In this document: piece by piece, positions 8,100 through 61,510 of the stretch
Layout of the letters: the number at the start of each line of letters is the position of its first letter
Numbering within the stretch: position 1 is the stretch's first letter
From: Schmidtea polychroa
Lineage: Eukaryota
Assembly (NCBI GenBank): GCA_044892525.1
Contig: CM097888.1
Coordinates: forward strand, 17,608,001 to 17,672,000
DNA: 64,000 bases
Reading direction: 5' to 3'
Notes under the pieces: model-generated
Database searches by the model: none
What the model was told of the DNA's origin: nothing
What the model saw: the letters and a program-made list of their open reading frames with translations, nothing else
Program-made: the position numbers and the translations under genes

Positions 8100-9560
8100 T
8101 GCAGGTGTTGGGTAAAAAAAATTGTTGTTGCCGCTACGGTCTACGGACTGCCGATAGAAGGCAAAGGTCGGGTTTATTATTACCATTTTAACCTCAGTGC
8201 GTAATTTCAATTAAAAACTTGGTTTATTAATTTATGCATTTAATGCCGATTTCGACGAAAATCTTTATCTGTAGCCATTCGTCTAAGGCTATTCGCTGTA
8301 CTCAAAGGTTTTCCAAAAAGGTAACCTCTTGTCTCACTCTCTGGTGGACGCGTTCTTTCTGGCAGGACTTGCTTTTTTCCTGAATTATGGCTGTGATAGC
8401 GGAACCGTAGTGGACACAAGATTCTTCGTTATTTGCGACTTTATTGTTTATACAGTCCGACATCGTTATTTTCCTGATGACAATTCGCTTCGAGACATCT
8501 CGCTCTTAACTCGAGAGCCAAGATTTCTGTTTGATATGTAGTCGCATGATTGTCAGCTTCGTTTCCCACATTTCCTCCTGCTTAAACTAGGTCACTTTGA
8601 GGTCGCGACACTTATGTTTAAAGTGTTCCGATAGGTTCTGGTGGAAACTCTTTTCACGGAGCCACTGGGAGGTATCACCGTGAAGCTTCTTCATATTCAT
8701 TTCCACTGAAATTAGAAATTTAATTAATGTAGTAATCTCTGGTGTTCATATCAAATAAATTTGTAGTTTATTATTTTTAAATTTAATAATAATAATTCAG
8801 TTTCTCCGGGTTTTTTTACTTTCCAGATGAATCAAGTCTGTTTGAATGCTATTTTCTCCCATCCGGTTGTTTTTCCTAACCCCTTCCAAGCTTTATTTAA
8901 TAATTCTAACAATCAACACGACCTCAATTAAGTGACATATGTTACCGATTATTTTCAACGCAAAATAATCAAGACAATATCACCGCTACCCAAAAATTAT
9001 CATTGCTTCACAATCAAATTCCGTACAAAACACTTTAAAATTCCTGTATGAAAAAAATAAAAATAAAACGCAAAACCATAAACTAACAGCTATATTCGAA
9101 TTATCAAACAGTAATAGAATTACCGACGTTGTTAGCTATCCGGTGACATCGAGAGGCTCTCCTCGTTTGGATCCAATCTGCGCGACTTGAAAATCCTTCC
9201 AGTCTAGATTAAAGATGCAACCCCCGATTGGCGACTCTGTACACTTGTCGCTCCACTCGATGCAGCTGTTACTCCACCTTTGCTTGAAGTACGCGGGTCA
9301 CATTTATTGCTGGTTCCCACTTGATGACTATACTAGATCGATTCCAGGGACACCATTTGTTATCAAATGTTCCACAAATCTTTTTTGAATGGGTTGACTT
9401 CCTTGCGTCGAACGCGAATGCGTCTCATTTCCGTTTCGGAATTGGCTACGTCATCACGTCATCATTCTTGTCATTATTCAATGTTATCGGACAGTGCATT
9501 CATCACTCGCAATATTCTCATACATATATGACTATAGTAGTTCTCTCATAATCTTTCAAC
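8100..9560. mobile_element. degenerate member of the orphan-ORF element family (copy C)
   Basis: GC-enriched block with the exact motif GACTGCCGATAGAAGG (8146-8161), a minus-strand decayed ORF, and short plus-strand matches to 24250-24470. Confidence 0.5.
8227..8700 (-). pseudogene. decayed coiled-coil orphan ORF (157 codons, 3 in-frame stops)
   Basis: Acceptor TTCTAATTTCAG lies 5 nt before the ATG at 8700. A single frame reads MNMKKLHG...EHFKHKCRDLKVT*FKQEEMW... to TAA at 8227, overlapping an AATAAA. Confidence 0.45.
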
Positions 9561-10744
9561 AATTCTCCATCCAGACGCAACACTTCTAATTTACTTTCAG
9601 TATACTAATTCGAAACCCCACAATCACTCAATGAAGTCCTCCGTAACCAACTAAATGACCATAATAATCGTAAATATTATAGAAGGAGAGCATAGCAATC
9701 ACAGAATTTATACACAACCCAGTACAACAATAAAAGGATTTAATAAAAGAATAACACTTAATGGGTACCCAAAATATTTAGGAATCCACAAAATCTTACA
9801 TCTTAACATAGTTGTTTTAATATTCTGTGGTCAAATAAAAAACCAAAATGGTGATGGTCATAAGAAATGAGATTAGATTTTTTAAGGAGTCATTTCAATT
9901 TTGTTTCAGTATATATTCCTAATTTTTTGTTTATACGTTGGTGTGTGTGAATTCAAACATTAAAACAAATTCAAAAAATTATTATTTTAATTTAACTTTA
10001 AACATTTTTGTCAAGTTTTACGCCAGACTTTTTATTATTTTTGAAATAAGTTATTTTACTAAATTTATAATTTATTTAATTTTTATTTTTTTCGACTCCA
10101 TGTTAAATTTCGCGAGTCTTATTCATTTTTAACAATTTATTTCATTTATTTTAAATTACGATTTTCTCGTTTTATTCTGTTTTTTTCTTTTGATCAAATA
10201 TTTATTCTTTATTTCTATTTTTTTATGTCACTTTTTTTTTGAATTTGTTTTTTCTTTTTGCCATTTTTATATTATGCTTCTTGTCGAATTTCTTGCTTCT
10301 GTTATTATTTTAATATTGTATTTATTAAATGAATCACCGGTTTTTTGATATTCACGAATTTACGACACTGCCTTTATCAAATGATTTTTATTGTACTGAG
10401 AAAATCAGAGGTAAAAATCGAAAGAACTTTTTTAAATACTATTTTAATATTATTTTTACGTAAATATGTATGCTTTCTCAATATTTAGGTGCTTATTTGA
10501 TGTTTTTGTGTTTAAGTTTAAATAGACTCTGTACCGTGTCATTGTTATTGTACTGATACTGTTTTGGTCGATTCCAAATAAATCGATGTCGGCATTTTGC
10601 TCGGCCATAAATATTGATTGGAAACTGGAATAACGACAGAGTACTGGAGCCGGGGTGATCAAGGCAGGTCAAGAAACCGCGAACTTGAAATGTATTGATT
10701 TTTCTAGAACAACATTGTCAAACACATTCACAACTCTGTTGTTT

Positions 10745-11300: not shown

Positions 11301-11604
11301 ACAAGAAAATGAAGTTTGTAACTTCATTTATTAAATTTTATAAATAGTTTTCAAGTAAGTTTTTTTAATTTTAAATAACTTTTAAGGCTTGAATTCTGAT
11401 TTTATACAATTATGAGATCATTATTCAAGCTCTTAAATATTACTTTTAGTCAACATTTGTGTTATAAATTATTTTTAATTAATTTTCAGGTATTTTTTAG
11501 GATTTTTATGAAATTTGATGAAATTATTTTTAGAATTATTTGGAATTATTTTTCTCGTTTAAATTTTTTTTTGTTAAATTTCAAGGAAAATTGAGTCAAA
11601 GTAG

Positions 11605-15009: not shown

Positions 15010-16184
15010 TTTCTACACTCTAACTACAAATCACGCCTGCAACCCTACCGAATCCATTACGTGTAGCATCGTTTCTTTCCCCACCACCATAGTAAGGTCC
15101 CCAGCCTCTGTCTTGGCGCGTTTTGATCATCACAGACCAAGGGCGCAAATTTAAAGCAGAACTGTTCAATTACATGACAAATTCCCTCGGCATCAAACAC
15201 TTACGCGTTTTCTCCTACCATTCTCTTGTGGAACGTGCTCATTGTAATATCAAAGCATCGCTTCGCATTCTCTCTATTTCCTTAAGATTGACAAAATCAC
15301 TAACATTCGTACTACTTGGATGCTACAATACAGCTAATTATTCTAGCGGGGTATCTCCAGCGCAATTACTGTTTGGCATGAATACACGCATGCCATCGTT
15401 ACTAATAGAGACCGATTCAGACTTCTAGTTACAACAGCTAAATTATGACCACAGCCACTTCTTATCCTTAGATTCCAACCCTTCCTTCACATACTCAACA
15501 TTGTACAAACCCTACATCCCAAAGTCACTCCTATCAGCTTCGTACGCCTGGTTAAAATGCATCGATACCTCAAAATCTCGTTATAAAGGACCTTTCCCGG
15601 TGATCAAACTTTTCACAAACACTGCTCAGTTACATATCGACGGTACACTACTCATTATAAGCTTAAGTCGTCTCAAACCTGCCATCGTTCTAAACGATCA
15701 ACACAATCTACCACCCCCTTCACCTTCCAGTCAACGAAGACTTGGAGGAAGACCCTTCCTGTGTTCCACATCGTGGCACTGATCCCCTTCCATCTATTCC
15801 ATCTGCTGAACTCCTACCCGGCCCATGTTCAACAAACCGCATCCACTGTCCCCACAATACCTTGCAGATTACCTGCTGGACACTACCACGCTTCAGTGGG
15901 GGCTATTGTAGTGCCTCCGTTTTATTCATATTTAAATATTTATTTATATAGATATATTATATTATAATATACTAAAAAGTACTATATAGAAAATAAAAGT
16001 ATTAAAAAAAACTTATTTAAATAATCAGAATAAGAAACAAAAACGCACGTTCGAAATATATAGTAACAAGAAGATAAAGAAGAGATGAAGCGCAACAATA
16101 AAATTTATAAAATTTATCATCCAGAACCAGTATCGCAGTCAAATCATTATTATCATCAGATAGAATTGAGATCGCGACATCACA
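15010..16184 (+). mobile_element. Gypsy integrase relic with PPT and 3' LTR
   Basis: IITDQGRKFKAELF...GIKHLR...LVERAH and GVSPAQLLFG integrase motifs, and RYKGPFPV. GTGGGGG PPT, then TGTAGTG (15907) to CATCACA (16184). Confidence 0.75.
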
Positions 16185-16199
16185 ATTTTATACTCAATA

Positions 16200-16860
16200 A
16201 ATTTTGGACGTTATTAATTATAATGTATTTCATAGTTACGATACGGAATTTACAAAAGTAGAAGACAAAGACCATGAACGATAAATCAATCCCTTCACCA
16301 TATTTCTCTTATAATTAAATTCAGAATCAGTGTCAGTTAGTTTTCTATAAATATCTATCTCATATTGTTTCTCTATGCGTTGTATTAACAAATCCAAGAA
16401 AGCAAGTGCTGAATTTATCTTCGTGTCACATGTGAATGCAATGTTTTATATGGATTATTCATATAATGCAAAAATGACTCAAAATGCAACTGATTTTGAA
16501 ATATAAGAAAAATATCATCCACATAACGTTTATGAACGGTGGGTTTCATAAATTGGAAAAATGCAATTTCCTTTTCTAAACTTGCCAAAAAATTGAAGCC
16601 ATAGAACCCATAGCAACTCCATTTATTTGTAAATACCGTTCATTATTGAAAAGGAAATTTACTTTGGAAGTACCAAATTCAAGAAGTTTGCGAAATGCCC
16701 TTCCTTCCAAAATATGCTGTTCAGATATGCTTTCATTCGATAATAAGCAACAGAAATCAATAGTTTCAACCAATGTTACATTAATAAACAAAAAACAAAC
16801 ATCAAGCGAAGCCATAATTTCATCCACACTTTTTCTATAATATTGTGCGATGCAGGACAC
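16200..16860 (-). mobile_element. Penelope-like RT relic
   Basis: YLQINGVAMGS motif. Colinear similarity, with deletions, to the Penelope copy at 31250-31900. Confidence 0.8.
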
Positions 16861-17195
16861 AAATTCAAACTACCTTTACATGCGAATGGTAAATATAAAG
16901 GTGTACAGTCCCGAATATTAATTTAAATCATCATGCACTTTATGTGCCTTGTTTATCACATTCATTTAATTTAATAATATGTGATGCTACTTCCAGCAGT
17001 ATATACTGTAAAAATGTTTTTGGTATACTTCAACGTTTATACTGCCTATTTTCTGCATCTATGAAAAGGTGGGAAATATTTAAAAAATATTCAAATATTA
17101 CCTTTAAACCATTGTGTGATACTCGTTAGGAAGCTATAGTACATTCAGTGAGAGCTATATACGAACAATTTGAGCAAACTTGTAATGGTCTTGAA

Positions 17196-18830
17196 CAGGG
17201 GTCTCAAACACGCTGCCCGCGGGCCTTATGCGGCCCTCAACAATACCCAACATTTAACAAAAACGTAAATTTTAAATTCTTAATGAATCTATAAATTTAA
17301 TCAACAACAAAACAACAAAAAATCAACAAGCAAAAAAACGAACACTTGTGGAAGAAAAATAATTTTTCAAAAGAAATGGGAGATTTTATATTTTTTCACG
17401 GAGGTAAAAGATAAAATACAATGCCTTATTTGCCAGCAAACGATTGCTGTTTCTAAAGAATATAACGTGCGTAAGCATTACGACACAATGCATCGTGATA
17501 AATATGATGAGTTTATGGGGAAAATCGGAGAAGAAAAAGTTCAGCAACTCAAAGCAGCCTATGCCACGCAAAGAAATTTCTTCTCAAACATCAACAAAGA
17601 CAGTGAAGATTCAGTAAGGACAAGTTTTGTGCTATGTGAAATGATTGATAAATCATCACGACCTTTCACAGAAGGATCATTTATAAGGATCATCACTTCT
17701 TGTCTTGCAGTAGACATTTGTACAATTTTAAAATATCTATCGCATTCTTTAATGAATGTTTCAACATCATCTCCTATATGATTGTTGAGGATACCTAAAT
17801 GAAAAATAATATAGTAAATAAATTACTTGGGGGAAAATCGTCATGACAAAGGGAACGATCTATGGGAACTCAGAAAAGAAAATGAAAGTCAAAAGAAATT
17901 AAAAATGAGGAAGATTAATCAAATAAAAGGAAACAAACAAGAAATTAAAAACAAAGGTCATTTTTAATTAAGAAGTACAAATGAATGTGGAATTTCAAAT
18001 TCCAGAAAAACAAAATAAGGGGAAAAGTCGTATCTTGACAGCTTGTCAAAGATAGCGATATTGTCGGGAGAAGGCGGCTTAACAAAAAAGGAAAATGGAA
18101 AAATATCTTGATGTCTGTCAGAGATAAGGCTGACGTAGAGGAAAAGTAAAAGGGTAAACAGAATCTGTCGCCAGTGCCACAAATAAAATAACTATATAAA
18201 GTAAAACTAGTGGACACGAAATCGAAAAAAAGGTTGAAAAAGTGAGAGACAATTTGTGAGACGATTTGAGAGACAATTTGAGAGATAAAATTATTGGAGA
18301 AAATTAGACAAAGTCGGACGAAACGTTGTTGGAGAAACGATTGTGAAAAAGAATTGTAAAGAAAAAAGTTGTGAAGAATAATTGTTTGGAGAAGATTTGA
18401 TTAAAGGAATTTAAAAAATTTAACGAAAAGAAGTTACTTGATTATTTGAATAAACTTGTTAAGAAGGTCAAAGAAAACAACCAGCTCAAAGTCCCAGTTG
18501 ATAAACCAATTAGTAATTTGTAATCTTTTAATCCGGTGTTATAAAAATCGAAGCTCTGGTGAATCAAAACGGTGCCAATTAAGTGGTCATAAAAGTTAAC
18601 TGAATAAGCTACAGTGCTTTAATATAAAAAACTGTCATATTATGAATAAAATGTGCAAGTTGTAATGTCTACTAGTTGTATAGTAGTTGAATAAATATAT
18701 GATTTCACTAGTTAAGCATTTTTCTGTACTGTTTTATTTTATAGTACTATAAAAAATATTTGATGCGGCCCTCAAATTGGTGTTCTTGTCCTAAATTGGC
18801 CCTCATCGTGAGTTGAGTTTGAGACCCCTG
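17196..18830 (+). mobile_element. Charlie/SPIN-type hAT element, internally deleted
   Basis: TIRs CAGGGGTCTCAAAC / GTTTGAGACCCCTG. 8-bp TSD GTCTTGAA/CTCTTGAA (7/8). GTF2IRD2-like fragment RKHYDTMH...KSSRPFTEGSFI. Confidence 0.9.
17690..18500. mobile_element. LTR-retrotransposon debris (minus-strand gag piece plus plus-strand LTR) inside the Charlie element
   Basis: Minus strand HIGDDVETFIKECDRYFK is gag-like. The LTR start TGTTGAGGATACC at 17783 is homologous to 1-426. The right boundary is uncertain. Confidence 0.55.
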
Positions 18831-19284: not shown

Positions 19285-21454
19285 TTACAATTTAAAATTA
19301 TTTTGATAATCTTTTTTACTTAATTCTCTTACGGCAAGCTTTATAGGCCCGAGAACTTGCGATATTTCCTTTAAAACATCGATATTTGCATTACAAAATT
19401 GTTTTTGACCTAGTTCAATTAAGGGTGTATTTATACAGTTACTCAATTTTAAAAAACGATTTATCATAGGAAGAATAGAATTCCAGCGAGTCTTGCAATC
19501 GAGTAACAAGCGAAGTTTTTTGCCTTTTTGCACAAATACATGTTTTTGTTGAATACTGCTTCTTACAGATGACTTTTTAAAAAATTTTATTATTTTTCGA
19601 GTCTCAGTTAGAACGACTTCAATATCATTAGGGACTTCGGGAATATCACTTATAGTTTCATCATCAAAATTTAAATTGGAGTCAGAAACAAATAAATCAA
19701 CGTGCCCAATATTATCACTTTCATCAGAATAGTCATCATCGTCTTGGAATTCTTCATTTGAATCATCGTCTTCAGCATCAACATCTTTTGGCTGCAACCT
19801 TTTTTATAGAATACATCAAGGACACCAAGATGGATGCCATGGTTATAATACAGTTGAGAAAATGCTTGAAATTTTTTTCCGTATTTCACCATAACTGAAG
19901 CACCATCATGGGTCGATGCGACAACATCTGAATTCATATGGATTCCAAAATCCGCAAGCATGTCTTTGACTAGCTTTATTGTGACATCGCAATCACAAGA
20001 ACCCTCGATAGGTATGAGGCCAAGAACGCTAGAATACATTCCTGTTGAGTGAATTGTAAGATTCATATATCTTCTGACATTAATATCACTCCACTCATCT
20101 ATCGTAATACTAAATCTTTTTACTGATTTTTGTTCCTTAAAAAAGGAAATAAGTTTTCTCTTTTTATCTTCATAAAATTGCATAATGTGCTTCATCACCG
20201 TTGTTTCACTTCTTGGCATTTCGTAGTTCCGGCTTCTTACAAAACCTCGTATAGCTTCAGATAATGTTATTTCTCTGATACTAAATCCATCCTTAGCTGC
20301 ACATTTAGCTAATATTTCATTTAAAGATTCTCGGCCAAAAAAATTCAACATAGCTCCAGATTTGGGTTTCTTTGAAGAAGAAGTGTCATTTGTGTCTTCA
20401 CTTTTTTTATTGTACAAGAAAACGCTGTGTAGCTTTAGGTGGTTTATCATGCCAGTAGTATTGGCTCCTTGCCGTTGAATGGTGATTTGGCATAAGTTAC
20501 ATGTCGCCTCATTTTTTCGTTTTTTTGTAAAATGTTTCCACACTTTAGATTTATTTAAGGACATTTTGGTGACTTGTTTCTTGGTATAGATTTAAAAAAA
20601 GAAATTATATCAATTTAGAATTTTCCGAATAACTCAAAACAAGATTCGTAAAATATACATGAATTCTAAAAATAATAAAAAATATATTAATCGGGAACGT
20701 ATTTACAGATTTGTAAAAAGTTTACCTACATATAACAAAATTTATATTTTAAATAAAAGAAAGATCTACTAAGTTAACGTTTTTGTTGAAAGTCAGCAGA
20801 TAATTATAAATTAATTTACGAAATATTATATTATAACTACATGTAGTTTACTTTTCGAATTGTAATGCTTTAATAAATCGATCATACAGTAAAGATTTAT
20901 TAAAAAAAAATTAAGATGGGAATTATTATTATTTAGAATATAGTTATTTCGGTAAACAGAACGCGAATTCAATGGTTAAAATTATTGAGAAATTTTTATA
21001 AGTTGACAAGACTTACTTTTCAGTTTTGAGATCATGGTTTCACAAGTTTCACTGCTTCTACTAGTACTTGTATTCACAAAAATTAAACGTGTTTAGTTTA
21101 TGTGTTAACACTTTAAAAGTTCTCACAAAACTAAACTAATATAAAAATTTTAATGCTAAATGCCTAATATATAAAAATAAAATTGTAATTTCAACTAGGC
21201 AACTAGATTCAAATTCCTTTTTAAAAAAAAACAAAAAATCCGAGAAATTCAAATTTTCAATGCTTGAGCACATCACTTAGATTTAAATTAAAATCCACGC
21301 ATATTTTTAAAAAATATTTTTGGTTGATATGTTTAAAAAAAATCAAATACAAGCCCGAGTATAATTATCGTATTTACCCGGGTAATCGAGTAATCGAAAA
21401 AAACAATAAAATTCCGAGTACCCGAGTACTCGATACTCGAGGTTGGATTCACTA
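19285..21454 (-). mobile_element. BED-finger hAT transposon, frameshifted and 3'-truncated
   Basis: BED finger VWKHF...CNLC...TTGMINHLKLH, catalytic IDEWSD and THDGAS, and DCKTRWNS. Frameshift near 19797. Left end TAGTGAATCC at 21454 with CCGAGTA subterminal repeats. Confidence 0.85.
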
Positions 21455-21943: not shown

Positions 21944-22014
21944 GGGAAATGAAGTAGGCATGTGAAGCTTATATTAATGCATTAATAAGGGCATATATGC
22001 CTACTTCATTTCCC
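21944..22014. repeat. 71-bp hairpin
   Basis: Perfect 18-bp arms GGGAAATGAAGTAGGCAT / ATGCCTACTTCATTTCCC enclosing the 16-bp palindrome TATTAATGCATTAATA. Confidence 0.9.
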
Positions 22015-22755
22015 GCTGTAATACTGTTTATATTTATGTATTAACGTATTAACGCTTAACCCTACACTGCATGACTTTTTATATTTGATAGGAAAAAACT
22101 TTCACTTAAACTGTAAGACGTTTTAAAAATTGATTTGGTAATACAAAACTATTGAGAATTACATTACGGTTTTTTTGTATTATATTGCAAATATAGCCAA
22201 TACAATTGTTGGGGTCACACCTCGGCGGACTACTCTACAATATTGGCTGGCCTAAGGGTTGATTGTCCATCTCGAATAAAATGTGCTACTGCCTTGTCAA
22301 CCTGGAGTGAAACCCCACATAACTTTCCTCCAACATAGTGCCCATGAATTACTTCACGTTGGTACTGCACTATGCAGGCGAGACGCCAGCAAGCAGGTGA
22401 GCTTCTGCCTTAAAACTACTCCTTGCTGAGGCCTCGACTTCCCATTCACGACTGCCGATAGAAGGGCTTACGTCTATCTCATTACACCACCGTTTGTCAG
22501 GATTTCGCGAAAAGCAAATCGGGGATTATTCATTAGCTCTCGAAGACTCTTTATTCATCCTATTTAATTAAAGTCTGGCTATTCATAAACGAAAGCATAT
22601 AAAACAACAAAATTTATTAATTTCAACGTTAAGATACAAGGATTCAGCTGTACACATCACGAATGTTTGTCGAAAGGAAAAGAAAAACATTACAACAAAT
22701 GTGGTTCGACTTCTCAACAGGCTTCAGGAATACCGCTGTGGTTCTCTTATTTTCC

Positions 22756-23496
22756 TCATTCGGTGTCGGCGAGTAACTCGTCTAGATTGAAGAATTCGGA
22801 GGCGTTTTCCTCCCATGTCACGCCAGCTGCTGAGATGATGCGTGCTGGGGGTCCTACTGTCAAGTCGATGGACACGCGAGAACTACTACCACCAGTTGAG
22901 TTTTCTATTGATGGGATGCTTGGCTTTGTGGATGCGCGCTCACGCTGTCGCTTCTTACGCTCTGCACGAGATAATTGTTTGCGCTTGGGTTTGCTCGTAG
23001 ATGTGACTTGCTGAAGCGCAGCGGGTACAGAGGTACTAGAAGTTGAGGTCTTACTAGTACCCGTGATGACGACGTCCGGTCGCATAGGTGACATTTCGGT
23101 TTCCACGCAGTCTCGACATGGTCTCTTGAGCGGTGGAGATGGATTCGATGAGGAGTTATGATGAGGCGGGAAGATGTTATCGGCCTCTTTGATTGGAATC
23201 TGTACGATTTTTTGTGTTGTGGCTGCTTGCACGTAGACTTTGTGCAGCGCTTCGGCCTGTTCTTTAATTAGGCTTCTTTGAGCACGGCTCTCGGCGATTA
23301 GAGCGTCACGACAGTGCTCACTCCTGTACAGTTTCTTTTGCGTCTCTTTCATTTGAGTGGGGGTAAACCAGGTGCCCTCCAACTCATCTATCTTCTTTTT
23401 ATATCGCCCGATCTGGGCCTGAAGATCCTTTATAATCGCGTTTTTGTCCGCGCAAGAGAAGCAAGGACGTAAGGTGGATTTCGTAGTTGGCAGCAT
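22756..23496 (-). CDS. orphan 246-aa protein: CxxC, coiled coil, second CxxC, S/T-rich linker, basic NLS-like patch, acidic C-terminus
   Basis: Intact ORF with an acceptor (TTATTTTACAG) 10 nt upstream of the ATG and AATAAA signals downstream. A diverged homolog lies at 57240-57863. Confidence 0.7.
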   Translation of the reverse strand: MLPTTKSTLRPCFSCADKNAIIKDLQAQIGRYKKKIDELEGTWFTPTQMKETQKKLYRSEHCRDALIAESRAQRSLIKEQAEALHKVYVQAATTQKIVQIPIKEADNIFPPHHNSSSNPSPPLKRPCRDCVETEMSPMRPDVVITGTSKTSTSSTSVPAALQQVTSTSKPKRKQLSRAERKKRQRERASTKPSIPSIENSTGGSSSRVSIDLTVGPPARIISAAGVTWEENASEFFNLDELLADTE

Positions 23497-24212
23497 AATT
23501 GATCAACTGTAAAATAAGGAACTATAACGACTTAGTAAATCTTTTATATGAATAAGATCGCGGGTCGAATGAAGTTGGTTGGTCACTGTCAGCAGTTGGC
23601 GGGTACTCAGAATAAGTAGGGGAATGGATTTCCCTTCTAGATGATTTGTAACATCGCTTTTATTTAACGAATAGCTCATTAAAGGGGTAGCATTGACGAA
23701 TGCAAATAAATCATTAACTTCGAAATTGAGAGGGTTTATTAATTACTAAATCGCCCTATAATTGTTGGTCTATAAAACATATCGAATTATTTAATGGTAT
23801 CTTTGAATATTGTTTAAAATACTCTTAATTATCATTTAAAATTTTTACCATGGTTATTCAAAATGTTATTATTCACGAACTCGAATTAATTTACCTATTA
23901 TTTAAAATTACTATTAATTGTTCGTTAGATCACTCGTAACACTCGAATTGACAATTTCCGACTCTATTATTAACGCTTGGTTTTAGTTTTCCACCATTAG
24001 TTGGCATGTCGTGATTATCCCCACTGAACTTAGTCATATTCGTTGCCGTTTAAGTTGATTAATTTAAATCATGGTAATCTATCATTATTAATTTAGTGGT
24101 TCGATTTTCCCTTTGAATTGTTTCCTGCAGAAGAATAATTATCGGTAGTTATTAATTTAGCCGTTTCGTTATTAGTCAAACTACTTTATCCAAAAATTCC
24201 TAGTGAATAGCC

Positions 24213-24740
24213 TATGTGATGTTACTGTGTGCGGTTATCTCTCGCTGGTCGCGTTACAGCACCAACTTTAAGCGAACTACCGTCTGTCACTCATGGAGCT
24301 ACTATGCTGATTAATCAATGTCCCTTCGTTATCAGTTGTAATGCTGGAATCTTTGCTAGATACGACATATGGAACACGGATTACTATGATTAGCCATGCA
24401 CTCGCTGCGTCATTATCATCCATCCTCGTGTGTATTTCTCAGGTAATTCTACAGATGGTGTTGCTACCCATATTCATGCTAGTATGCCTAATCAATGGAA
24501 AATTTATCTGCACCCACACATCATATGGACTAATTCTCAACCGTCCAGTTTTCCTGACAATTCTCTCACTTGGATTTTTTGGAATTATTTACTATGTGTG
24601 GAGATTTTCCTCAATTCTGGATATTACTTGATGGAAAAGTTCTACAATTCAACTCCCTACTCTATGTGGGTATTATTTCGATGTTAGACATCCTGATGTG
24701 ATGGTGTGGAAACCGCTGAACGGGTATTTCTAGTTTATTA
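24213..24740 (+). pseudogene. degenerate second cargo ORF of element copy A (hydrophobic, Cys/aromatic-rich)
   Basis: Long overlapping near-open frames (24341-24631, 24430-24687). Short matches VT.P.L.E and PFVI.C to 9265-9380. Confidence 0.35.
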
Positions 24741-25651
24741 ATAAGTATAAATTAAATAAAATAATTATCAGGAGTTATGTTTTTACTTTAATTTTAATAA
24801 AGGTTATTTATACATTAGAACTTTATCTATTTTAAACTGAAAATGAAGAAATATAGAACTTGTCCTGATTTTTGATTAACCGAACATAAGTGTGGAATTT
24901 AGTACGATGTTAGAGTCAAATTTGACTGATTACGACGATGCTAGCGAAGAGTTAGTCTCATGGTCGCATGGTTCCTCAGGATGGAAATTGAAGACATAAG
25001 ATCATTGTAGATGTAGCGTCCACCTCAATCACTGTACATTTCTGGACTCGTTCTAAATTCATGTCACTAATACAACACGTTTTTCCTCATTCTATCCAAT
25101 TTTGAGTCAACCTTCAGCGATTGGACCCGTGAAGAAGCCTTCACTTTTCGGCCCAATCTAGCTGCGTGATTGAAGAACCTCAGATCCGCCGGCTGAGCTC
25201 CCGAAGGCACCTCACACCATGATCTGCGGTTCCTCAACTCCACGTTACTCGCATCGAATTTTAATATATATCATATTGACGCATAAAACTCATAAAATAA
25301 ATCATAAAATTACTGAAACTCAGAATCATTTATTATAAGGTTTTCCAAAATCATTCATCAACCTACATTACATTCATACCTTTACTTATTCAGAAACTTT
25401 AAAGGAATCAGATGAAAAAGGATTAAGTTAAAACTTTATTTATGAATATTTATCATTACTGTTAACTATTAACTTTACAACATTAAGTGGTAATCAATGA
25501 AAACTCCTTACTATCGTGATTTGAATGTTGGGCTAAATCGAAATTTAATCTCCTGGAAATAGGTTGGCTTGAGTTCAGATGTTCCTTGAATGATTAGTAC
25601 TGCTGCTGCTGTGTGAAGTTCGGTTAGTTGTGATTGTTGTCGCTCTAGGTG

Positions 25652-25783
25652 TACCTGTGAAGTGTTTAGAATTAACGGTGAATTTTTTAGACTTTATCTT
25701 ACCTGTGAAGTGTTTAGAATTAACGGTGAATTTATGATTTTTGTGCTGGTTTATATATAAATTTTTGATGTGTGCGGACCAAT
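25652..25783 (-). promoter_or_regulatory. candidate promoter / non-coding first exon (CCAAT, TATA, duplicated splice donor)
   Basis: CCAAT at 25779-25783, TATATAAA about 25749-25761, then a 34-bp direct repeat (25652-25685, 25700-25733) with each copy carrying CACAG/GTA on the minus strand. Confidence 0.45.
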
Positions 25784-26594
25784 CAAAATTGAGTACCGCT
25801 TATTTCTATTAATTTAATATAATTTTCTTGTTTTTAGGTTATTTTTCTTATTTCTATTTATTTCCTTAATTTTCTTATTATTTATTAAATTTTCCTTATT
25901 CTACTTATTGTTCTATTGTCTTATTTTTATTTTCCTTATTTTTATTTTTTGTTTTAATTCTTGTTTTCCAACTATTGTTTCTTTTATATATTTTTTCTGA
26001 TTTTTATTCTTAATTTTGTTTATTTTAGTTTTATTTTCCTTAATGTTCTACTTTGTTAGCTTTTATTTTTTAACATTAAACCTCCGATTCAGCCCAACAC
26101 AATGTAATATGAGAGAACATTTACCGAGAACAAGAGCGAGACAGTTTTTAATCTAATAAGATAAATGTGTATCACCAGTGATACAATATGCAGTGTAGGG
26201 TTAATGTATTATATGTATACTCTTATTTCAATATAATTAAAATATAAAATTGTTTGGTTTTTTTAGTGAGCCGGCTGTTAACTCTTTGACAACACACCCT
26301 GTCCGTACCCCTACCTACTATTCGCCCATTGAAAATCTTTTACGTCCCTCAAAACAATTTGAGATCATTTAAATTTTCATATTAAAAATTCTCAAATAAT
26401 AAATTACATTAAATTCGTTTTATGTCAACTTAAAATTTGAAAAATAATTAATTTCAAGAAATTTCTGACGTCATCGATTTCTCTTCTCATGCTTTCACCT
26501 GAATGGACAAAATCGAAATTTTCTTCCTAAACACACAATGCTGCGCATCTCAATTGTTATCAGTCTACAAAATTATTTAATCAATAAGTTACCA

Positions 26595-29500
26595 ATGCTA
26601 TTTTTATTATGGATTATATATTTTCCTACTTTTATTAAATCAAATCATTATAATAGTTATTCAGAAAATATTCCGAAACCTTTGGATGGTACTCTTTATG
26701 GAGATGTCTACAATTGGGTGGACATGATTCAAAATTATATCAAACAATTGGCTTTAAATGGAATTAGAAAAGATGTTACTCAGTCTTTGTTTGATCAAGC
26801 AAAATACAAGTTAGAAATAAAAGATGGAATGGAAATCGTCAAAGATATCAGTGAACAGCTTGGTTCTTATTTATTCAATCGTAAAAAGGCTGCTTTAAGA
26901 ATAGCAAATGCTGCTGTGGAAATATATGATATGAATAAAAGGCGCAGTGCGAATTTCTCTTATGAATTTCTAAAAGATCTTCCAATTAACGAAGTTATGG
27001 ATTCTGATAATCCGAAATCTTTGCCTTCAATGAAATTTAATTCGTATTTCAAGCAAAATGTTACTGAAAAACATTCTACAATAAAAATTGCTGATGAAGT
27101 ACCTCGATCACTGAATACTACAATTTTTACAGTTCATTGGACGTATAAGTTAGAAGAAATAATGAAGGAAAATGCCAAAGAGGATACAAGAATTCGGTGG
27201 CAATATTTCGGTAGTACAGCAGGTGTTTTAAGATTATTTCCTGGTCGAGAATGGAGTAGTAATTTTGTTGGTTTTTATACAGATTATGATCCAAGAGTGA
27301 GAGCATGGTATATAACTGCGACAAGCGGACCAAAAGATGTTATAATACTTATCGATTGCAGTTTTAGTATGACTGGAGAAAAGTTTTCTATTGCCAAAGA
27401 GGTATCTAAAGCTATAATACAAACTTTGACTAAACATGATTATTTAAATGTGATATGCGCAAGAAATAGTCACTGGGATGAAATTGGAAAGTGGCACCTG
27501 TATAAATCCCATGCTTTAAGTTGTCGACCGGACAGTCTAGTGGCAGCTACAATTGCTCATAGAAAGGATCTTATTGAAAGTATTGATAACTTAGTCCCAG
27601 GAGGCACAAGTGAATTGGAAACTGGATTTGAATTAGCCTTTGATTTATTAAAAAGTGTTCCTAGAACTGGTTGTCAAAGTATCATTGTATTTCTTACTGA
27701 TGGTCGAGATACTGACGGTGAAAATGTTCGGTGTGGTCCCGGCTATTATACAAGGTCTGGATATGTTCCTGGACCAGTATGTAAGTACAACTGGACCAAA
27801 GTCCATTCTATTATAAATAATACAAATATGGGTCTGACTGTTCCAGCAAGAATATTCAGTTATTTAGTAAAGGATGATGGTGAAATGCTACCAGGCTCAA
27901 TTGCATGTGGTCATGGGGGAAGTATGCGTAAAATTGTATATGGAGAAAATATAATATCCCAGTTATCCAATTATTTTGAATTTTTAGCCAAAGTTACACA
28001 AAAGAAAGAGGGATTATGGACATCTCCTTACATAGATTCTTTGGGTACTGGATTACTTATTACTCATGCAGTACCAGCTATCAGTACTTTTGATGGAACT
28101 CTTCTTGGTGTAGCTGGAGTTGATGTCACATTGGAAGAAATAGAAATGTTAATCGCAAGATATCAGTGGGGATCTATGACTTCATTTTTTATAAATAATA
28201 AAGGAAATGTCATTTTTCATCCTTTACTGAAAGCCAGTACCACTTTAGAAGATGATCCAATATTTATCCACATTCAAAGTCTTGAACAAAACAAAGCTGG
28301 AAATCCTAAAGATTTCTCAAAAGTTGTGGACGATATGATAAATATGACAACAGGAAATCGCCGTATTATTGATGGTAGAAGAGGAACTCCAAAAGGAGAC
28401 TTTAAAGCTGGAGTAAAGTATGATAAAATGCCGTTAGAATATTATTATGCACCCTTGAAACATTCAAATGTATATTCTATTGCTATTGTTTTAGCCGATA
28501 CAGATAAAGTGTTTCGAAGACTTGAAGAACCCTCAAATATTAGTCAGCCAGTTCCAAGCTTCTTTAATTTATTAATCGAATATAACAGTACAAATGTTCT
28601 CAAAGAATATCCCAGTATTTTTAAAGAGCTTGACGTTCGATTTAATGAGACTAAATATCCAATGCTGAGAGTCACTTATAATTATTCAAGCATATTTTTT
28701 GCTCCAAGTGTGCACTGTGATCCTAGTAAATACTTTTTTGATGATGATCTGGCTCAAAAGACTTTAGACGCTCATAGATATATGAATGAATTGACTCACA
28801 ATTCTGATCCGGGATGTGATGTTCCAGAAGGAAAATATGCACAGGGTACAAGAGCTTATGTTCTTGTGACTGAATCTATAGAAAACCAATGGAAAATTAG
28901 AAATTTTGAATCAATAAATGAAGTTACATGGACTTATGTTGGTATGAGGTCTGGGGTTTTTCGAACTTATCCAGGACACCGATCAACTAGGCTTTATGAT
29001 CCAACAAAGCGTCCTTGGTACCGAAGGACTTTGGCTAATCCAACTAAAATTTCAATTTCTACACCTTATTTTGACGCGGCTGGGAGTGGAAAAATCATAA
29101 CAATATCACAAGCAGTCTTTGAAGGAATGCCTACATTATCAAAAGAACATTGTAAAAATATAAATTCGTTAAAGCCAGGGGGCTGCCATTGTATAAAAGA
29201 TTCAGATTGTTTGAGTGGATACTGTTACATCAGTAAAGCACCAGGTCCAGATGCACATGAAACAAGATGTGCTACAGAAAGAATAGAAGCTATAACAAGT
29301 CTTGATATAGGCTATGATAGTTTTCATAAAAGATTATTTCAAATTATGCAGGCTTCAGATGGTGTAAGATCATGTAATTCTTCTTATAAATGCCCGGATG
29401 GGCATCTTGATTGCTGGACAAAATGTTATATTTTTGATGACAGAGCAAATATTATTATGGCTTCAGAATTTGTTGCTGCGACAGCTTTCGACACAAATAA

Positions 29501-30182
29501 GTATCTTGGGATTACAGTGGGTAAGAAAGAAAGTGAAATAATGAAAGATTTAATTTACCATCATAAGTTTTTTCAAAGAAGTGAATCCATAGATTTTCAA
29601 GTAAACCTACAAATATATAATCTATTTAATATTATTTAGGGAGCATGCACTTACGTGTCTAGTTTTCCACAAGTAACATTAAAAGGTATTCCGAGAACTC
29701 CGGAAGATTTTGACAACTATTATAAAACGAGAGGACCCATTCCTAGTTTTATTAATTCATATAGCTGCATTCAAGATGTAGTGACTTTTTCAGCAAATAT
29801 ATCTGCATTAGGTCCAAGCAGAATGATTGTTGGAAATGTGTCCGGCCCATGCACAACTGGCTTTTATTACGTCACCAGTATGCCTGAAACAAATCTTTTT
29901 CTTTTAGTAGTTGAAAGTCGATATGACAGAAGTGATTCGTTTTTTTATAATTTTAATTGTGAAATATCAAGAAAGATTGTAGCAAGTGGAGCGTACAGAA
30001 TTATTAATGGAACTTGTGCTCACAAAGAAACGAACAAGCATACCCTTGCTGAAAAGGGTACTTGTCCAGAAATAGTAAAGATAAATATGACTTGTGAATA
30101 TACCATAGCTATGAATTATCAACCCAACTATAAACTGCTAGTTATTAATACATTATATTTAGTTTACACTTTACTGAACTAG
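26595..30182 (+). CDS. CACHD1: VWA and Cache domain protein (alpha2delta/CACHD1 family), exons 26595-29600 and 29640-30182, about 1182 aa; alternative start 26538
   Basis: Signal peptide, RWQYFGSTAGVLRLFPG, VWA MIDAS DCSFS...TDG, Cache motifs PYIDSLGTG and YDPTKRPWY...TPYFDAAGSG, a 39-nt GT-AG intron, and a hydrophobic C-terminus. Orthology (CACHD1 versus CACNA2D) is not resolved. Confidence 0.85.
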
Positions 30183-30597: not shown

Positions 30598-32334
30598 TTA
30601 AAAATACTCAAAAGTATTTACTGCATTCTGCACATTAATTTTCGGATTCAATGATTTTATCAACAACGCCTCACAAATCACACGTTCCCAATAATTATCG
30701 AAATTTTTTAATAAAATTTTAAAATCAGACATACCTATTTTAATCTTACAGCCTTTATTGTGCTCACCAATATGGGTCAAAGCCTTCGGTCTACAATGTT
30801 CTCGAGCTCGAATACAGAGATGACGGGAAGTCTCTCCAATGTATGTGGCATTACACCCATTACATGTAAACTGATAAACGAGATCGGAACACAATTTAAC
30901 CGGAGTTTTTGACTTATTAATAAACATATTGCGTACTTTCCATAAAGTGGACACTATCCTATAGTTTAAATTCCCTAACTGCTTTCTTATCTTCACTTTA
31001 TAATCCTTAAAACCTTCTGAGTACGGCAAAACTAACACAAATGTAGGCTCATCATCCTTGCTCACACTATTTAATTTATTTAACTCATCAGACTCACACA
31101 CCTTAACAAGATCACACCCAGATTTTCTCAAACATGGATCATTATGATTTTCAATAAATTTGTCAACAGTCTCTTTCACCATAATTACTAAAAAGAATTT
31201 TGAATAACCGTTCTTCATTAACAATTCAACCAATATGTCAACACTTTTTACTGAATTTTTAAAAGTAGAAGACAAAGACCATGCACGATAAATCAACCCC
31301 TTCACCATATTTCTTTTATACTTGAATTCACAAAAACTTTCGGAAGAAGTATAGAGACCAGTATCAGTTGGTTTTCTATAAATCTCTGTCTCATAGTGTT
31401 TCTCTTTGCGTTGTATTAACAGATCCAAGAAAGCAAGCGATGATTTTGTCTCCGTTTCACATGTGAATACAATGTTTTTATGTAGACTATTCATATAATG
31501 CAAAAACGGGTCAACATGCCTCTGATTTTCAAATATAAGAAAAATATCATCCACATACCGTTTATAAACAGTGGGTTTCATACCTTGGAAAGATGCAATT
31601 TTCTTTTCTAAGCTTGTTAAAAAAATTGAAGCATCGTTGGTGCTAAAGGAGAACCCATAGCAACTCCATCTATTTATTGATACCATTCATTATTGAAAAG
31701 AAAATTGATTTTTGAAGTTGCAAATACAAGAAGTTCACGAAATGCTGTTCTATCCAAAATATGATGTTCAGAAATATTTTCATTCCATAACAAGCAACAT
31801 AATTCAATTGTTTCAACCAATGGTACATTAGTAAACAGACTACAAACATCAAACGAAACCATAATTTCATCCATACTTTGTCTATCATATTGTGCAATGC
31901 AGGAAACAAATTCAAAACTATCTTTACATTCAAATTCTGATCGTATTAATGGTTTCAATAATCCATCCAAAAATTTGGCTATTTTATACTGGGCAGTGCC
32001 AATCATGGATAAAACAGGTCTCATCGGCACGCCATCTTTATGGATTTTTGGAAGCCCATACATTTTCGCTGGTTGTGATCCCATTGGGCGAATAGATTTG
32101 CTTATTTTTTTTTAATTAATTTATTTAGTATCTCTTTCAACAAATTCCCATCCTTAAGAGGAGGCTGTATTCGAGAAATCTCTATTTTCACAAACTGTGG
32201 AGCATTCAAAACATCATTAAGCTTATTTACATATACATCGTGGTCGAGAATTACCAATCCATTTCCTTTGTCAAACTTGCATATATTGATGTCTTTTTTA
32301 GCTAAATTTTTTAATACAGTAAAATCTTTAATAT
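30598..32334 (-). mobile_element. Penelope-like retroelement, RT plus GIY-YIG endonuclease, frameshifted
   Basis: KFDKGNG, MYGLPKIHK, SFDVCSLFTNVP, DGVAMGSPLAP, YKRYVDDIF, and LVYQFTCNGCNATYIGETSR. Confidence 0.95.
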
Positions 32335-32429
32335 TCTGCTTTTTATTTTAAAGATTTTATATTAAAGAATTTACTGTATTAAAAGATTTAGCTAAAAAAG
32401 ACATCAATATATGCAAGTTTGACAAAGGA
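32264..32429. repeat. 71-bp inverted repeat at the 5' end of the Penelope copy
   Basis: Arms 32264-32334 and 32359-32429 are nearly identical, with a 24-nt spacer. Confidence 0.9.
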
Positions 32430-34010
32430 TAGAGATAGAAGAGATAGGAGAGACACGAAAGTTATTATTTTGCAAAAGGTAATTAACGTTTGCATCATTA
32501 CTTTACCGGATAAAGCAATTCTGCTAAACAGAAATTGGTGATCCAGTTAATCGATTAAAGGGAACGTTACTACCGATTCTGGGTAGTAATCGATCGCGTT
32601 TAAACTAAGGGAATCCCTTGTCTTTTCCCTTTCACTGATGAGCGGTGCTATTGATCAATTAGGATCCTGCATTCGTCGTCTTAGAAATACCTGAGGACGA
32701 TTTGTATAACCGATATCTTTGCTTCTGTTATATTGCGACAACTTTTTCGGCAACACGTTTTGTAATTTTTTAAATGTATATCATAAACCATATTTGTATT
32801 TATTTGTTAAATAAAGTTTATTATCTAAAGCGAGTTGTGTTCTTATTTGTGAAATTAACAAAGGTCTTTAGAGTCAGATCAAGAGAGTGTGTATTGTGAA
32901 AATACAAATTCAAAATAGCGTCTGGAACTCAAGCACAAGTTAAACTAAAGCAACAAATGGTGGAAGAAGTTAATGCAAATGTTTTTGCAAGATATCCTGC
33001 TTTGGCTGTTAAGGCATTCAGTTGTGATCCACGAGAATTCTCAGAATTTATGTCCGAATATTATCAGAAGGCAAAGGCATATGCCTACCCAGACAACATA
33101 ATGATTCAGAGACTACCAATTTACTTGAAGAGACTTTCTAGAATAAAGTACAATGATGTAATGGTATTACCAGCTCTCAATATACCCAAATTAACATGTT
33201 AGAGAAATTTCTCATCAATTATCATTGATAGCTGAAAGAGCTTTTGGACTCAAGTCTACTTGGGCACAACCAACAGAGTTATTGGTAAAAGATCAGTTAT
33301 GGGCGCGATTCAGTCCAGCATTGAGAAACGCGCTGATTCTTAACGTGGGAGATAGCTATGATGAGCTAACAAGAAAAGCAGTTATATTAGAGAGCAGTTT
33401 AGAGAAATCAACTATGTTCAGGGTGAATAACGAGAAATCACCAGTAGAATATTTTAATTGTCATAAAAAGGGTCATATTGCTAAGGATTGCAATAGCCGT
33501 AAGCCAATCGAGATAAAGAGAGGCAGTTCGTGCATGTGTGGTAGAAATAATTACACTGCCGAAAATTGTAGAGCTAAAAACTTGAAATGTGAAAAATACA
33601 AACGTAAAGGGCATGTAGCTTTGGTTTGTAGGGCCAGAAACTCACAAACAAACAGTAATAGTTTTAATTCGGTAAAGCGAGGTGATGTGAATTCAGCAGG
33701 AAAGATAAAATGTCACGGATGTGGAAAATTCGGGCAAACTTTGAGGTCATGTCCTAAGAATCAGAGTAGCAACAATAATAATAGTAGAATCAATCAAACA
33801 AGAAATACCAATAGTGGTAATGGTAACAAATCTAGTACGGTCTTTATGGAAGGAATCAGAATTATTGTAATAATGTTTGGGTATTGTAAGTTTATGTGTA
33901 TAATGGTTTGTACCTTTAGTGTTTGAAGGTAAGATAGAGAAATTTTGTAGAACCCGATAGAGTCACCTATAAAAATATGTGGCGGGACAATCGGGGTGTG
34001 TGTATGTAGT
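32430..34010 (+). mobile_element. Gypsy-type relic: LTR end, PBS, gag with zinc knuckles, protease remnant
   Basis: LTR end ...TTAACA (32860), PBS-like GGTCTTTAGAGTCAGAT, and gag ORFs 32957-33926 with several decayed CCHC knuckles (FNCHKKGHIAKDC, CHGCGKFGQTLRSC). Confidence 0.8.
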
Positions 34011-51158: not shown

Positions 51159-51381
51159 TCAAGAACAAAGTTCCGAAAAAGATAAAAAAGAAAATTATAA
51201 AACCTAAACAATTCGAGATTAAAGTTCTGAAGAATATTAAAAGGAATATTATCAAACATTAATAATTCAAGAACAAAGTTCCGAAAAAGATAAAAAAGAA
51301 AATTATAAAACCTAAACCATTCGAGATTAAAGTTCTGAAAAATATTAAAAGGAATAAAAAGATAAAAAAGAAAATTATAAA
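51159..51381. repeat. 108-bp tandem duplication (two copies plus a partial)
   Basis: The unit TCAAGAACAAAGTTCCGAAAAAGATAAAAAAG... starts at 51159 and 51267. Confidence 0.9.
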
Positions 51382-57238: not shown

Positions 57239-57239
57239 T

Positions 57240-58315
57240 TTGGAAGAGAATCATTCACAGCGCATCCTCATTCGAGAGCAATCGCGGGCGCTTCACCAAA
57301 TTTAAACCCACTCGGAACTCAAAAATTGTATCGCCGTATGTCCTGCTACAGACCAAGGAAATATCTTCCCCAGTCACCATTTGACTGAAGGCCCGAGTTC
57401 ACCGAAGCGATCTACATGTCGAGGGCATGGAAACAGTGCGGTGACGTCGCTCATTCCAGAGGTAATCTACGTTGGCACTAGTGTGGCCCCAGTTACCTCC
57501 GCGGCGCATATCTTGGTCCTAGCTCCACCCAACACCTCCGAAAAACTGAAACATAAATCTCGCATGTGGGCATAATTGACTCCGCGTCGACGCGAGAAAC
57601 AGACACAGTCAGAAGCCGCTCTTGCTGCATCTCATGCCAAAGCAGCAGCCGATCTAGTCGTTGCAATTCAATCTTCAAACCGACCGTCGTACCGAATAGT
57701 ATCTGCCGCCGGTTCGGGAGGGACGGAGGAAGGGCAAGTGGACTTTGTCCTCGAATAGCTATTGCGGGAGGCCAAACTGATGCGTTTTCGGAGTCGTCCA
57801 TCCAAAATCCAACCTAACGATCTCATTTCTCCTTCAACTCCACTCGTCCGTAGGATGAATTAACTCTGTTGATTTACATTCGTATGATTTGCATGGCCTG
57901 GATTGATAGTCTTTAATGAATAAAAATATATGTTTGCTATCGAACGTTGTTACTTGAATGTGTATAGTTGTATCTTCTCTGAGTGCGGTTCAGGATGGAT
58001 GACAGTTGATTGATTTAAATGAGTCACGCAGTCAAACTTTGATTTACGTTCTCCAACAAGGACCAGTTGGATGGTAATAGTTCTGATTAGTAAGAGGTAA
58101 GACCTTCTATCGGCACTCTAGAACCCTTATAGGAGTACGATAGGGGAGTAGTTGTAATGCAGGGCACTTTGTCGTATGATTGCATTGTTATGTGAGTATC
58201 TATAACGGTTGACTGTGAAATGCTGAGTATGATGACTAAAGAATAAGACGACCTGCGCATGCCACTTTCATAGACTGCCTAAATGATGTATGTCAACTTG
58301 AAGGGAACTCCAAAA
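57240..58315 (+). mobile_element. 5'-truncated orphan-ORF element (copy B) with pseudogene 57240-57863
   Basis: One frame with 3 stops: QRILIREQSRALHQI*...NIFPSHH...RIVSAAG...FVLE*LL. The motif CCTTCTATCGGCACTC is at 58103-58118 and a degenerate terminus CTCCAAAA at 58315. Confidence 0.75.
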
Positions 58316-60489: not shown

Positions 60490-61510
60490 TAGTTAGACAT
60501 TCAGTCAGGTTTTCAGACTACCATTAAAAGGTTTCGTGTTCAACGTCTGGTCCTGTCATAATTATTATCCTTTGGGACCCAAAGATTAATTAAAACCCAA
60601 GGTGGATCAAGAAATACAGATTTTATTATTAAAAACTCGCGATTCGGGTCTCCTTTATTGCATTTCTCCGACCAATCTCCTTGAGGCTATAATTGTACCA
60701 AGCGGTCGTTAGAGCCTGCCTTCAAGCAACTCTAGTGGGAGCAGTGGCTTTATTCGCGCTGATATCTTATCGTTAATTTCCTGCTGAGCCTGCCCTACTT
60801 CCAACTAGCGAATTCGGTATTTGAGCATTCTAATTTCCATGTTATTGTTCACTGCCTGTTCTTGTTAACTCGTAATTGACTGTATTTTTGGCTTCATGGT
60901 TTCGGGGGCGAACTTTTTCGCCTCTACTTCCTAATATCGGTTTTTGAATTTGTCGGCATGATTCCGCAGTAACTTCATCATCGCCGGGTGGCCCTCAACT
61001 CTAGCCGGAATGTTTCGGCAATTCTCAACTGAATAACAAACCCAATTCAATGCATACGTCGTGATCACCCTTTAATAAACTCCGATTAAAAAGATAAATT
61101 TTCATTCCCGAAAGTATTGGTAGTTGAAGTTTGGATTTTCCCGTTTCCATAAATTTCTTCACCGACTCTCACCCTCATAATATTTCTCATTAAGCGCAAT
61201 CAAACGATACCCATTCAGCATCGATTTGTCGCAAAACAACTTACAAAACAAAAGAATAAGTAGAACCAATCTTACGATATAAGTCAAGACAACACAATGG
61301 AACAAAACAATGTTTGTAATAACACTGATGTTAAGTGACTCCGTGGCCTCATATGAGATATCCGGGGTTTCAAGCATTTTCTTCTTTTCGAAGTTCTGGT
61401 CAATCTTAGGTGTCACTCCGGTTACCATGTAGCCGCCTGGTTAGATTGACAAGCTGGGTGGGGAGTGATTCTAGTTCCCACGCTCACCTTTTGCTTGAGA
61501 GGTGAAATCG
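60490..61510 (-). mobile_element. probable orphan-ORF element (copy D) with decayed coiled-coil ORF 60981-60655
   Basis: Acceptor TTTGTTATTCAG/TTGAGAATT, then MMKLLRNHADKFKNRY*EVEAK... in one frame with 4 stops. Degenerate motif GACTACCATTAAAAGG (60516-60531, 12/16). CTCACCTTTTGCTTGA is shared with 9271-9288. Confidence 0.45.

Follow-up and report, generated by a model that had tools for sequence, protein, structure and literature searches.

We analyzed a 64-kb window (64,000 nucleotides of contig CM097888.1, assembly GCA_044892525.1, forward-strand positions 17,608,001 to 17,672,000; all coordinates below count from its first letter), in which a 3.9-kb element carrying an intact 246-aa open reading frame (ORF) lies inside a miniature inverted-repeat transposable element (MITE). 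The element begins with TGTTGGG, ends with CCCAACA, and is flanked by a 4-bp target-site duplication (TSD), CAAT, in the target context ACAATG. Rejoined after excision of the element, the host MITE, which we take to be piggyBac-like from its TTAA and CCC features, measures exactly 244 bp between its TTAA sites and has 13-bp terminal inverted repeats (TIRs). Its 17-bp pair of TTAA plus TIR occurs once in the window, and none of 200 shuffled sequences contained one. At the left junction of the element, the GC content steps from 0.26 to 0.47. The termini, the duplication, and the insertion into a 244-bp MITE, all proposed in an initial annotation made from the letters alone, were thus borne out by the sequence check and the excision. 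A perfect 18-bp inverted repeat (21944–22014) adjoins the host MITE on its left.

The end signature proves nothing by itself. TG..CA 7-bp inverted repeats with a 4-bp duplication were found 39 times in the window and 13 to 34 times per shuffle (20 shuffles), and the version that follows the long terminal repeat (LTR) consensus TGTTRNR was found twice, compared with zero to three times in 30 shuffles; taken without the MITE, the signature is therefore not significant. This frequency, together with the lack of any empty copy of the host MITE within the window (blastn) to fix the junction, could speak for a mere patchwork, in which insertions unrelated to one another happen to have matching ends and a duplication. 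We consider such a patchwork very improbable, since the signature sits inside a unique TTAA-TIR pair, the GC content steps at its left edge, and a second locus, R1 (see below), shares the same end beside the same motif. Because of these three observations, we conclude that the element is real. The window contains three N gaps, at which identical repeats might have been collapsed during assembly.

Aligned with each other, the first 800 bp and the last 800 bp of the element yielded no direct repeat (score 32; shuffled mean 31), and the YxDD, D[TS]G, CCHC, and GPY/F motifs were absent from all six of its frames, where the pattern matches amounted to one TDGS and two HHCC, every one broken by stops. 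The end alignment and the six-frame scan thus upheld the initial view that the element has neither a direct terminal repeat nor an intact enzyme motif. An Rfam scan of the element at E values up to 1 gave 0 matches, and for neither strand of the 354-nt left end did RNA structure exceed that of shuffled sequence (z −0.2 and +0.8). With no terminal direct repeat to provide two LTRs, the element was rejected as a terminal-repeat retrotransposon in miniature or a large retrotransposon derivative. DIRS and other tyrosine-recombinase elements, which make no TSD, and Mavericks, which have long TIRs and a 6-bp TSD, were set aside on these features.

The 246-aa ORF was found to be intact, with the acceptor and polyadenylation signals that had been annotated around it. 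In the AlphaFold model of the protein (P0001; pLDDT 65, pTM 0.32), long confident helices are predicted at residues 17 to 44 and 48 to 100, and the rest is disordered, with a short basic helix, a K/R-rich patch, and an acidic-hydrophobic tail. As modeled, the protein is a coiled coil followed by an Arg/Lys-rich patch, and it belongs to no named family: Pfam, PHROGs, and PDB sequence searches with the ORF identified none. The Atlas search, run with the homologue P0008, returned generic helical matches only and no usable feature match, and of 253 pattern matches in prokaryotic genomes, 0 were confirmed.

A word-index protein search with the single ORF returned nothing. An exhaustive protein search, by comparison, recovered eight homologues (E 8e-7 to 2e-4), and a profile search, in which 8000 candidates were scored, added at least seven, giving a lower bound of 15 altogether. 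When a profile was built without the window protein, it found that protein with E 2.5e-24 and, with E 2e-10, the decayed copy R2. The description of the gene as an orphan was therefore too strong, although it is correct that no named family includes it. The listed homologues are about 17 to 35% identical to the window ORF and form several subfamilies, which supports the earlier suggestion of an old family, and a dispersed one. The family tree comprises two database subfamilies, one solitary row, and a branch with both window copies, P0001 being a long branch of unsure placement. In 13 of the 15 listed homologues, the gene model fuses the ORF homologue to a cellular domain, a different one each time (SNF transporter, actin, glycine decarboxylase, subtilase, L21, CRAL-TRIO, tyrosine phosphatase, sybindin, LSM14, DAD, MCM6, M1 peptidase, and ankyrin), and two are domain-free. 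The eight homologues that were examined are singletons with UniParc ids, and the flanking portions of the 15 listed homologues do not match the rest of the element. Probably, these entries are automated gene models that swallowed an exon of a dispersed repeat. Three homologues with different predicted neighbors carry IFDN directly before the start methionine, consistent with a nearby splice acceptor. At least eight R/K within 15 residues are present in 9 of the 17 family rows, and most of the remaining rows are shortened or broken. Most database homologues begin with a [YR]KIP[KR]-like motif (alignment of P0002–P0017), and the window protein is without it.

Three further loci in the window had been proposed as relatives, and they fared differently. 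R2, at 57.2 to 58.3 kb, was confirmed by tblastn with the 246-aa ORF (28% identity over 191 aa, E 1.5e-18); its ORF remnant carries three stops, and its 3′ DNA aligns to the element with a z of 4.6. In a protein-level alignment of R2 with the window ORF, identity at the three codon positions was 0.45/0.52/0.31 (174 codons), as is typical of a reading frame under selection. Judged from these comparisons, the 246-aa ORF appears to be a member of a selected, unnamed, accessory-type gene family. R1, at 8.1 kb, holds at the DNA level only: its TGTTGGG end (8106) lies 40 bp from a 16/16 match to a motif situated 244 bp inside the left end of the element, and its layout resembles that of the element. 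This 16-nt motif has three matches in the window against 0.1 expected, and 0 of 100 shuffles reached three. The stop-broken minus-strand frame of R1 was not significantly similar to the ORF (equaled by 128 of 1000 shuffles; hhalign E 0.3). The third locus, R3, at 60.5 to 61.5 kb, is unproven: its window-wide E value is about 5, it reaches E 0.019 against the family profile in hhalign, 2 of 500 shuffles attained its score in a frame chosen by eye beforehand, and the 16-nt motif is absent from it. T-rich matches that blastn returned at other places in the window are of low complexity and were excluded from the relatives.

On the same strand as R2 and 5′ of it, a gag-protease fragment displays four zinc-knuckle-like motifs together with LLDTG; Pfam matched it only weakly. 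The gag-protease piece, an ATPase-like piece, and the ORF homologue adjoin on one strand over 55236–57779, the last two sharing a frame, an arrangement that is either a chimeric retro-copy or a nest that has suffered deletions. The ATPase-like piece presumably resembles a Maverick packaging ATPase.

The ends of the element fit the attachment (att) consensus of Metaviridae LTRs, TGTTRNR..YNYAACA, including its length of about 7 bp (PMC3601003), and the short CAAT duplication also fits a Ty3/Gypsy solo LTR. An LTR-like layout can be read on the minus strand, where the promoter, splice, and polyadenylation features are consensus matches and not mapped transcripts. Read from the right end, this strand presents 300 bp of A-rich sequence, a CCAAT box, a TATA box, a splice donor, acceptors at 24837 and 23507, the ORF, two AATAAA signals, the conserved motif with an acceptor-like site at 22452, and the left end. 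The donor, about 50 nt behind the TATA box, is the sole minus-strand donor over threshold in the element, and donors scoring as high number 11 in the entire window on both strands. Splicing as predicted from 25702 to 23507 would drop nearly all of the 46 upstream ATGs. The AT skew of the plus strand is −0.14 in the element and −0.07 in its non-coding middle, making the minus strand A-rich, as the gag fragments of the window are on their sense strand (AT skew +0.15 and +0.29). The minus strand of the element can thus be read as an LTR with an embedded gene whose splicing is predicted, in an order that matches the Metaviridae LTR of PMC3601003 with about 3.2 kb inserted between the promoter and the polyadenylation site.

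The interpretation that we favor, by a modest preference, is that a Gypsy-type element with 3.9-kb LTRs was inserted into the MITE by its integrase and that a single LTR is what remains. The integrase of a Ty3/Gypsy-type (Metaviridae) parent would have duplicated CAAT on insertion, and the single LTR would have arisen by LTR-LTR recombination or by the collapse of two identical LTRs in the gapped assembly. The LTR would house a complete minus-strand transcription unit, with an A-rich U3 of about 370 bp, a TATA box, a short first exon (about 25 nt), an intron of 2.2 kb, a single coding exon, a polyadenylation site, and a last stretch of about 320 bp that contains the conserved motif. By way of the acceptor at 22452, read-through RNA could bypass the cassette and its polyadenylation signals en route to gag-pol. 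The initial annotation had left the choice between a giant solo LTR and a non-autonomous gene cassette open. The att-consensus ends with their 7-bp length, the clean MITE insertion, the minus-strand promoter and polyadenylation anatomy, the co-oriented gag at R2, and the precedent of the giant planarian Gypsy elements discussed below favor the LTR branch without settling the choice.

Several observations weigh against an LTR. Neither a paired copy nor a primer-binding site (PBS) or polypurine tract was seen for the element in the window, and a 3-kb R or U5 with introns would be atypical. Eight AATAAA hexamers fall in U3 under the minus-strand model. At R2, the gag-protease piece is separated from the ORF homologue by about 220 bp of ATPase-like, unrelated sequence, so that the neighborhood may be a nest. 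No retroelement domain, gag or pol included, is joined to the ORF homologue in any of the 15 listed cases, and Foldseek of the model against BFVD and PDB gave no viral or solved structural match at E ≤ 0.001. Two further points, an inverted copy of the right end that a simple LTR does not explain and the possibility that the 246-aa ORF is antisense to the genomic RNA, are taken up below.

The absence of retroelement domains among the listed homologues, set against their 13 cellular fusions, is also an argument for a stand-alone, non-autonomous gene cassette, one without a gag-pol parent, which has only short att sites as its ends and is moved by an integrase borrowed from a Gypsy- or Ginger-type element. 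The transcription unit appears complete between the ends, and R1, whose ORF is another one or has diverged far, carries the end and the motif of the element. The Ginger parallel drawn in the initial annotation failed on TIR length and target preference: Ginger1 and Ginger2 share TGTNR ends and a 4-bp TSD with the element, but they have TIRs of 40 to 270 bp where the repeat here is 7 bp, insert at CCGG/CCGT (Ginger1) or RTATAY (Ginger2) and not at ACAATG, and encode an integrase-like transposase that is missing here (PMC2836005). The lack of retroelement fusions could also be explained by repeat masking of pol or by an excess of solo LTRs over full elements. We know of no route by which a single unit with 7-bp ends and no LTR pair would be copied, and on the whole we regard the cassette as unlikely. 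An improbable extension of the same idea is that the family consists of gag-pol-less satellites that move by means of an integrase taken from Gypsy elements, retain one end motif in common, and swap cargo between subfamilies, with each copy supplying a Rev-like factor in trans.

Within the LTR reading, the minus strand, which is the ORF strand, is somewhat more probably the genomic-RNA strand than the plus strand is, because it is A-rich, because of where the conserved motif lies, and because R2 is co-oriented with gag. The plus strand has features of its own, namely a good donor at 22397, an acceptor, the same palindromic TATA box, and a T-rich end, and the 246-aa ORF may therefore be antisense. 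With the opposite polarity, the plus strand would be genomic with a U3 of 3.5 kb, the 246-aa gene would be transcribed antisense from the palindromic TATA box, its intron would outlast reverse transcription with no need of an export factor, and the protein might regulate transcription as HBZ or Grande gene23 does. A T-rich right end is typical of U5, ATTAAA hexamers lie in it, a donor and an acceptor are present on the plus strand, and antisense accessory ORFs are well known (PMC7264820, PMC10186651). On the other side stand the A-richness of the minus strand, the conserved motif at the opposite end just past the polyadenylation signals, and the gag orientation at R2. We hold this arrangement to be a less likely form of the LTR reading, of which it is a subdivision, so that its probability overlaps that of the reading as a whole. 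The plus strand also carries a 96-aa hydrophobic ORF, which has no Pfam match and reaches E 0.11 at best in PHROGs; it may be a chance ORF, its open frame being near the chance length for the composition by a rough estimate.

If the minus strand is genomic, the cassette could be copied only from unspliced RNA, which would give the element a reason to encode an export factor; on that argument, the product is most likely a nuclear RNA-binding regulator. A doubtful but specific proposal is that the protein, acting like Rev or CERV, helps unspliced RNA of the element to be exported or stabilized, with a transcription regulator and a silencing suppressor as the next guesses; if the gene is antisense, a regulator like HBZ or gene23 would be as plausible. 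The basic stretch seen in 9 of the 17 rows fits the arginine-rich motif of a Rev-like factor, and one of nine scanned members matched the Pfam REV family (PF00424) at E 7e-4. As to a leucine-rich export signal, hydrophobic tails were noted by eye. Two findings speak against a Rev-like role. The basic patch of the window protein itself holds 4 Arg only, and the REV match, with 19 bits against a cut-off of 22, is under the cut-off and driven by arginines.

The last 15 bp of the element recur inside it as an inverted copy (14/15) that bounds a 574-bp sub-unit and that the initial annotation had overlooked; 0 of 2000 shuffles reached 14, and the best reached 13. This copy may be the relic of an older LTR boundary or an element for 5′-3′ pairing. 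The sub-unit 25526–26099, which has 15-bp inverted ends, a TATA box, a donor, and the size and anatomy of an ordinary LTR, might itself be the true LTR, the whole being an expanded or chimeric LTR derivative in which the other 3.3 kb would be leader or internal sequence plus an accessory gene, acquired through shifted priming or a second att site. We think this quite improbable: the 574 bp are not flanked by a target duplication, and neither a tRNA-type PBS nor a purine tract adjoins 25526; the left end of the element is shared with R1, as expected of an old family end; and a mere relic should have decayed, so that the role of the copy may lie in 5′-3′ RNA pairing. Ty1 CYC5/CYC3 provides a precedent for such pairing.

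The closest parallels to a 3.9-kb LTR are the giant planarian Gypsy elements Burro/GYPSM1, which are probably from the same host group and have accessory ORFs and an internal region of up to 25 kb in a total of more than 30 kb (PMC6431247). By our arithmetic, these sizes imply multi-kb LTRs, with which the element is compatible in size, a comparison of descriptions and not of sequences. Burro elements are transcribed upon PIWI loss (PMC8532177). They differ in that their accessory domains lie in or upstream of the polyprotein, and the available part of PMC6431247 mentions no ORF inside the LTR. The same source gives LTRs of up to 6.5 kb for Ogre. Plant Gypsy elements (Grande gene23, RIRE2, Retand, and Ogre) likewise carry conserved orphan ORFs, some nuclear and some with their own promoter, but in the internal region and not within the LTR, as far as the accessible account goes (PMC7264820; Ogre: PMC6431247). 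In Cer1 of C. elegans, also a Gypsy-type element, the lineage-restricted spliced accessory gene CERV encodes a leucine zipper and a nuclear localization signal and is required for export of unspliced RNA (PMC10309623); its likeness to the window ORF is one of description only. Rev, Rex, Rec, and HTLV-1 HBZ are likewise regulators of small size from spliced transcripts, and they have Arg-rich or coiled-coil portions (HBZ: PMC10186651). They differ in belonging to vertebrate retroviruses, and the Pfam REV cut-off is unreached here. Genes in or driven from an LTR include mouse mammary tumor virus sag, HIV nef, and foamy virus bel, and sag and nef are not known to be complete promoter-to-polyadenylation units inside one LTR.

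In the literature, we found no Gypsy LTR, whether of planarians or of other invertebrates, that is described as containing a gene; Grohme 2018, Repbase, and the supplements of PMC11410931 may describe one. Given Burro, a large solo LTR is not in itself new, and the new aspect would be the complete gene, spliced by prediction, inside it. If the LTR reading is true, each solo LTR left by recombination would be a complete portable gene, the host's usual way of disarming LTR elements would still scatter expression cassettes for a regulator, and the element would offer a second invertebrate candidate after CERV for the export of unspliced Gypsy RNA. The absorption of the ORF into automated gene models, seen in 13 of the 15 listed homologues, either corrupts annotations or traps host exons.

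Table 1. Features of the element, its host MITE, and related sequences, in window coordinates (strand "." where none is assigned)
Feature	Position	Strand	Basis or remark
Whole element, candidate giant solo LTR	22207..26099 (3893 bp)	.	ends, TSD, GC step
Left target-site copy CAAT	22203..22206	+	sequence
Right target-site copy CAAT	26100..26103	+	sequence
Left short inverted repeat TGTTGGG, integrase att-like	22207..22213	+	consensus in PMC3601003
Right short inverted repeat CCCAACA	26093..26099	+	sequence
Host MITE, left part	22056..22206	+	TTAA + 13-bp TIR 22060-22072
Host MITE, right part	26104..26204	+	TIR 26188-26200, TTAA 26201-26204
Intact 246-aa ORF	22756..23496	-	ATG to stop; ORF list, fold model, 15 listed homologues
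Core-promoter-like region	25750..25783	-	consensus scan; palindromic TATA 25752-25759, CCAAT 25779-25783
Splice-donor-like CAG/GTAAGA	25697..25705	-	GT at 25702; predicted intron 2196 nt
Splice-acceptor-like site, 10 nt 5′ of ATG	23507..23521	-	consensus scan only
Two AATAAA signals 3′ of ORF	22550..22618	-	22613-18, 22550-55
16-nt motif	22450..22465	-	also at 8146 and 58103; acceptor-like on minus strand in 2/3
Low-complexity terminal stretch	25790..26080	-	A-rich minus / T-rich plus
Perfect 34-nt direct repeat, spacing 48	25652..25733	.	spans predicted start site and donor
Inverted copy (14/15) of last 15 bp	25526..25540	+	bounds 574-bp sub-unit
96-aa hydrophobic ORF	24341..24631	+	acceptor-like 24335, 5 nt upstream; possible donor 22397
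R1, decayed relative	8106..10330	.	TGTTGGG end, shared motif, T-rich far side; right end not found
R2, decayed relative	57243..58162	+	last two-thirds of ORF homologue + 3′ DNA motif; no clean terminus
R3, possible distant ORF relative	60640..61110	-	unproven
Repeat family beginning TGTGGCGGGACA	33972-34003, 51525-51556, about 53193-53220

Elsewhere in the window, we noted a homeobox gene (2393–3442), an alpha-2-delta-like gene (26469–30182), a Midasin-like gene whose introns are short and whose open frame measures 9.9 kb (35689–50525; labeled by eye), a proteasome beta subunit gene (58645–59505), and a mir-753 precursor (11378–11439; Rfam 66.6 bits, cut-off 62). The mir-753 precursor is the strongest pointer to the host, probably a planarian, and the AT content of about 70% agrees with planarian genomes (PMC11410931). 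Other mobile sequences include a decayed integrase-like fragment labeled by eye and without a Pfam match (15096–15782), hAT-like fragments at 19285–20591 and 17287–17781 (a BED finger with DUF659, and a Spin-doc zinc finger), and a Penelope-like element (30598–32111) with a weak GIY-YIG match and a reverse transcriptase-like frame, of which a partial copy with 85 to 89% identity lies at 16242–16869. A gag-like ORF (32900–33926) is directly followed by a repeat beginning TGTGGCGGGACA, possibly another LTR family. The element at 50900–52888 has 21-bp inverted ends, an A-rich tandem array of 54-bp period (51159–51381), and a transposase-like fragment that we take to be pogo/Tigger. At 32257–32436, two 78-bp arms that are 94% complementary around a 24-nt spacer form a hairpin or a small MITE.

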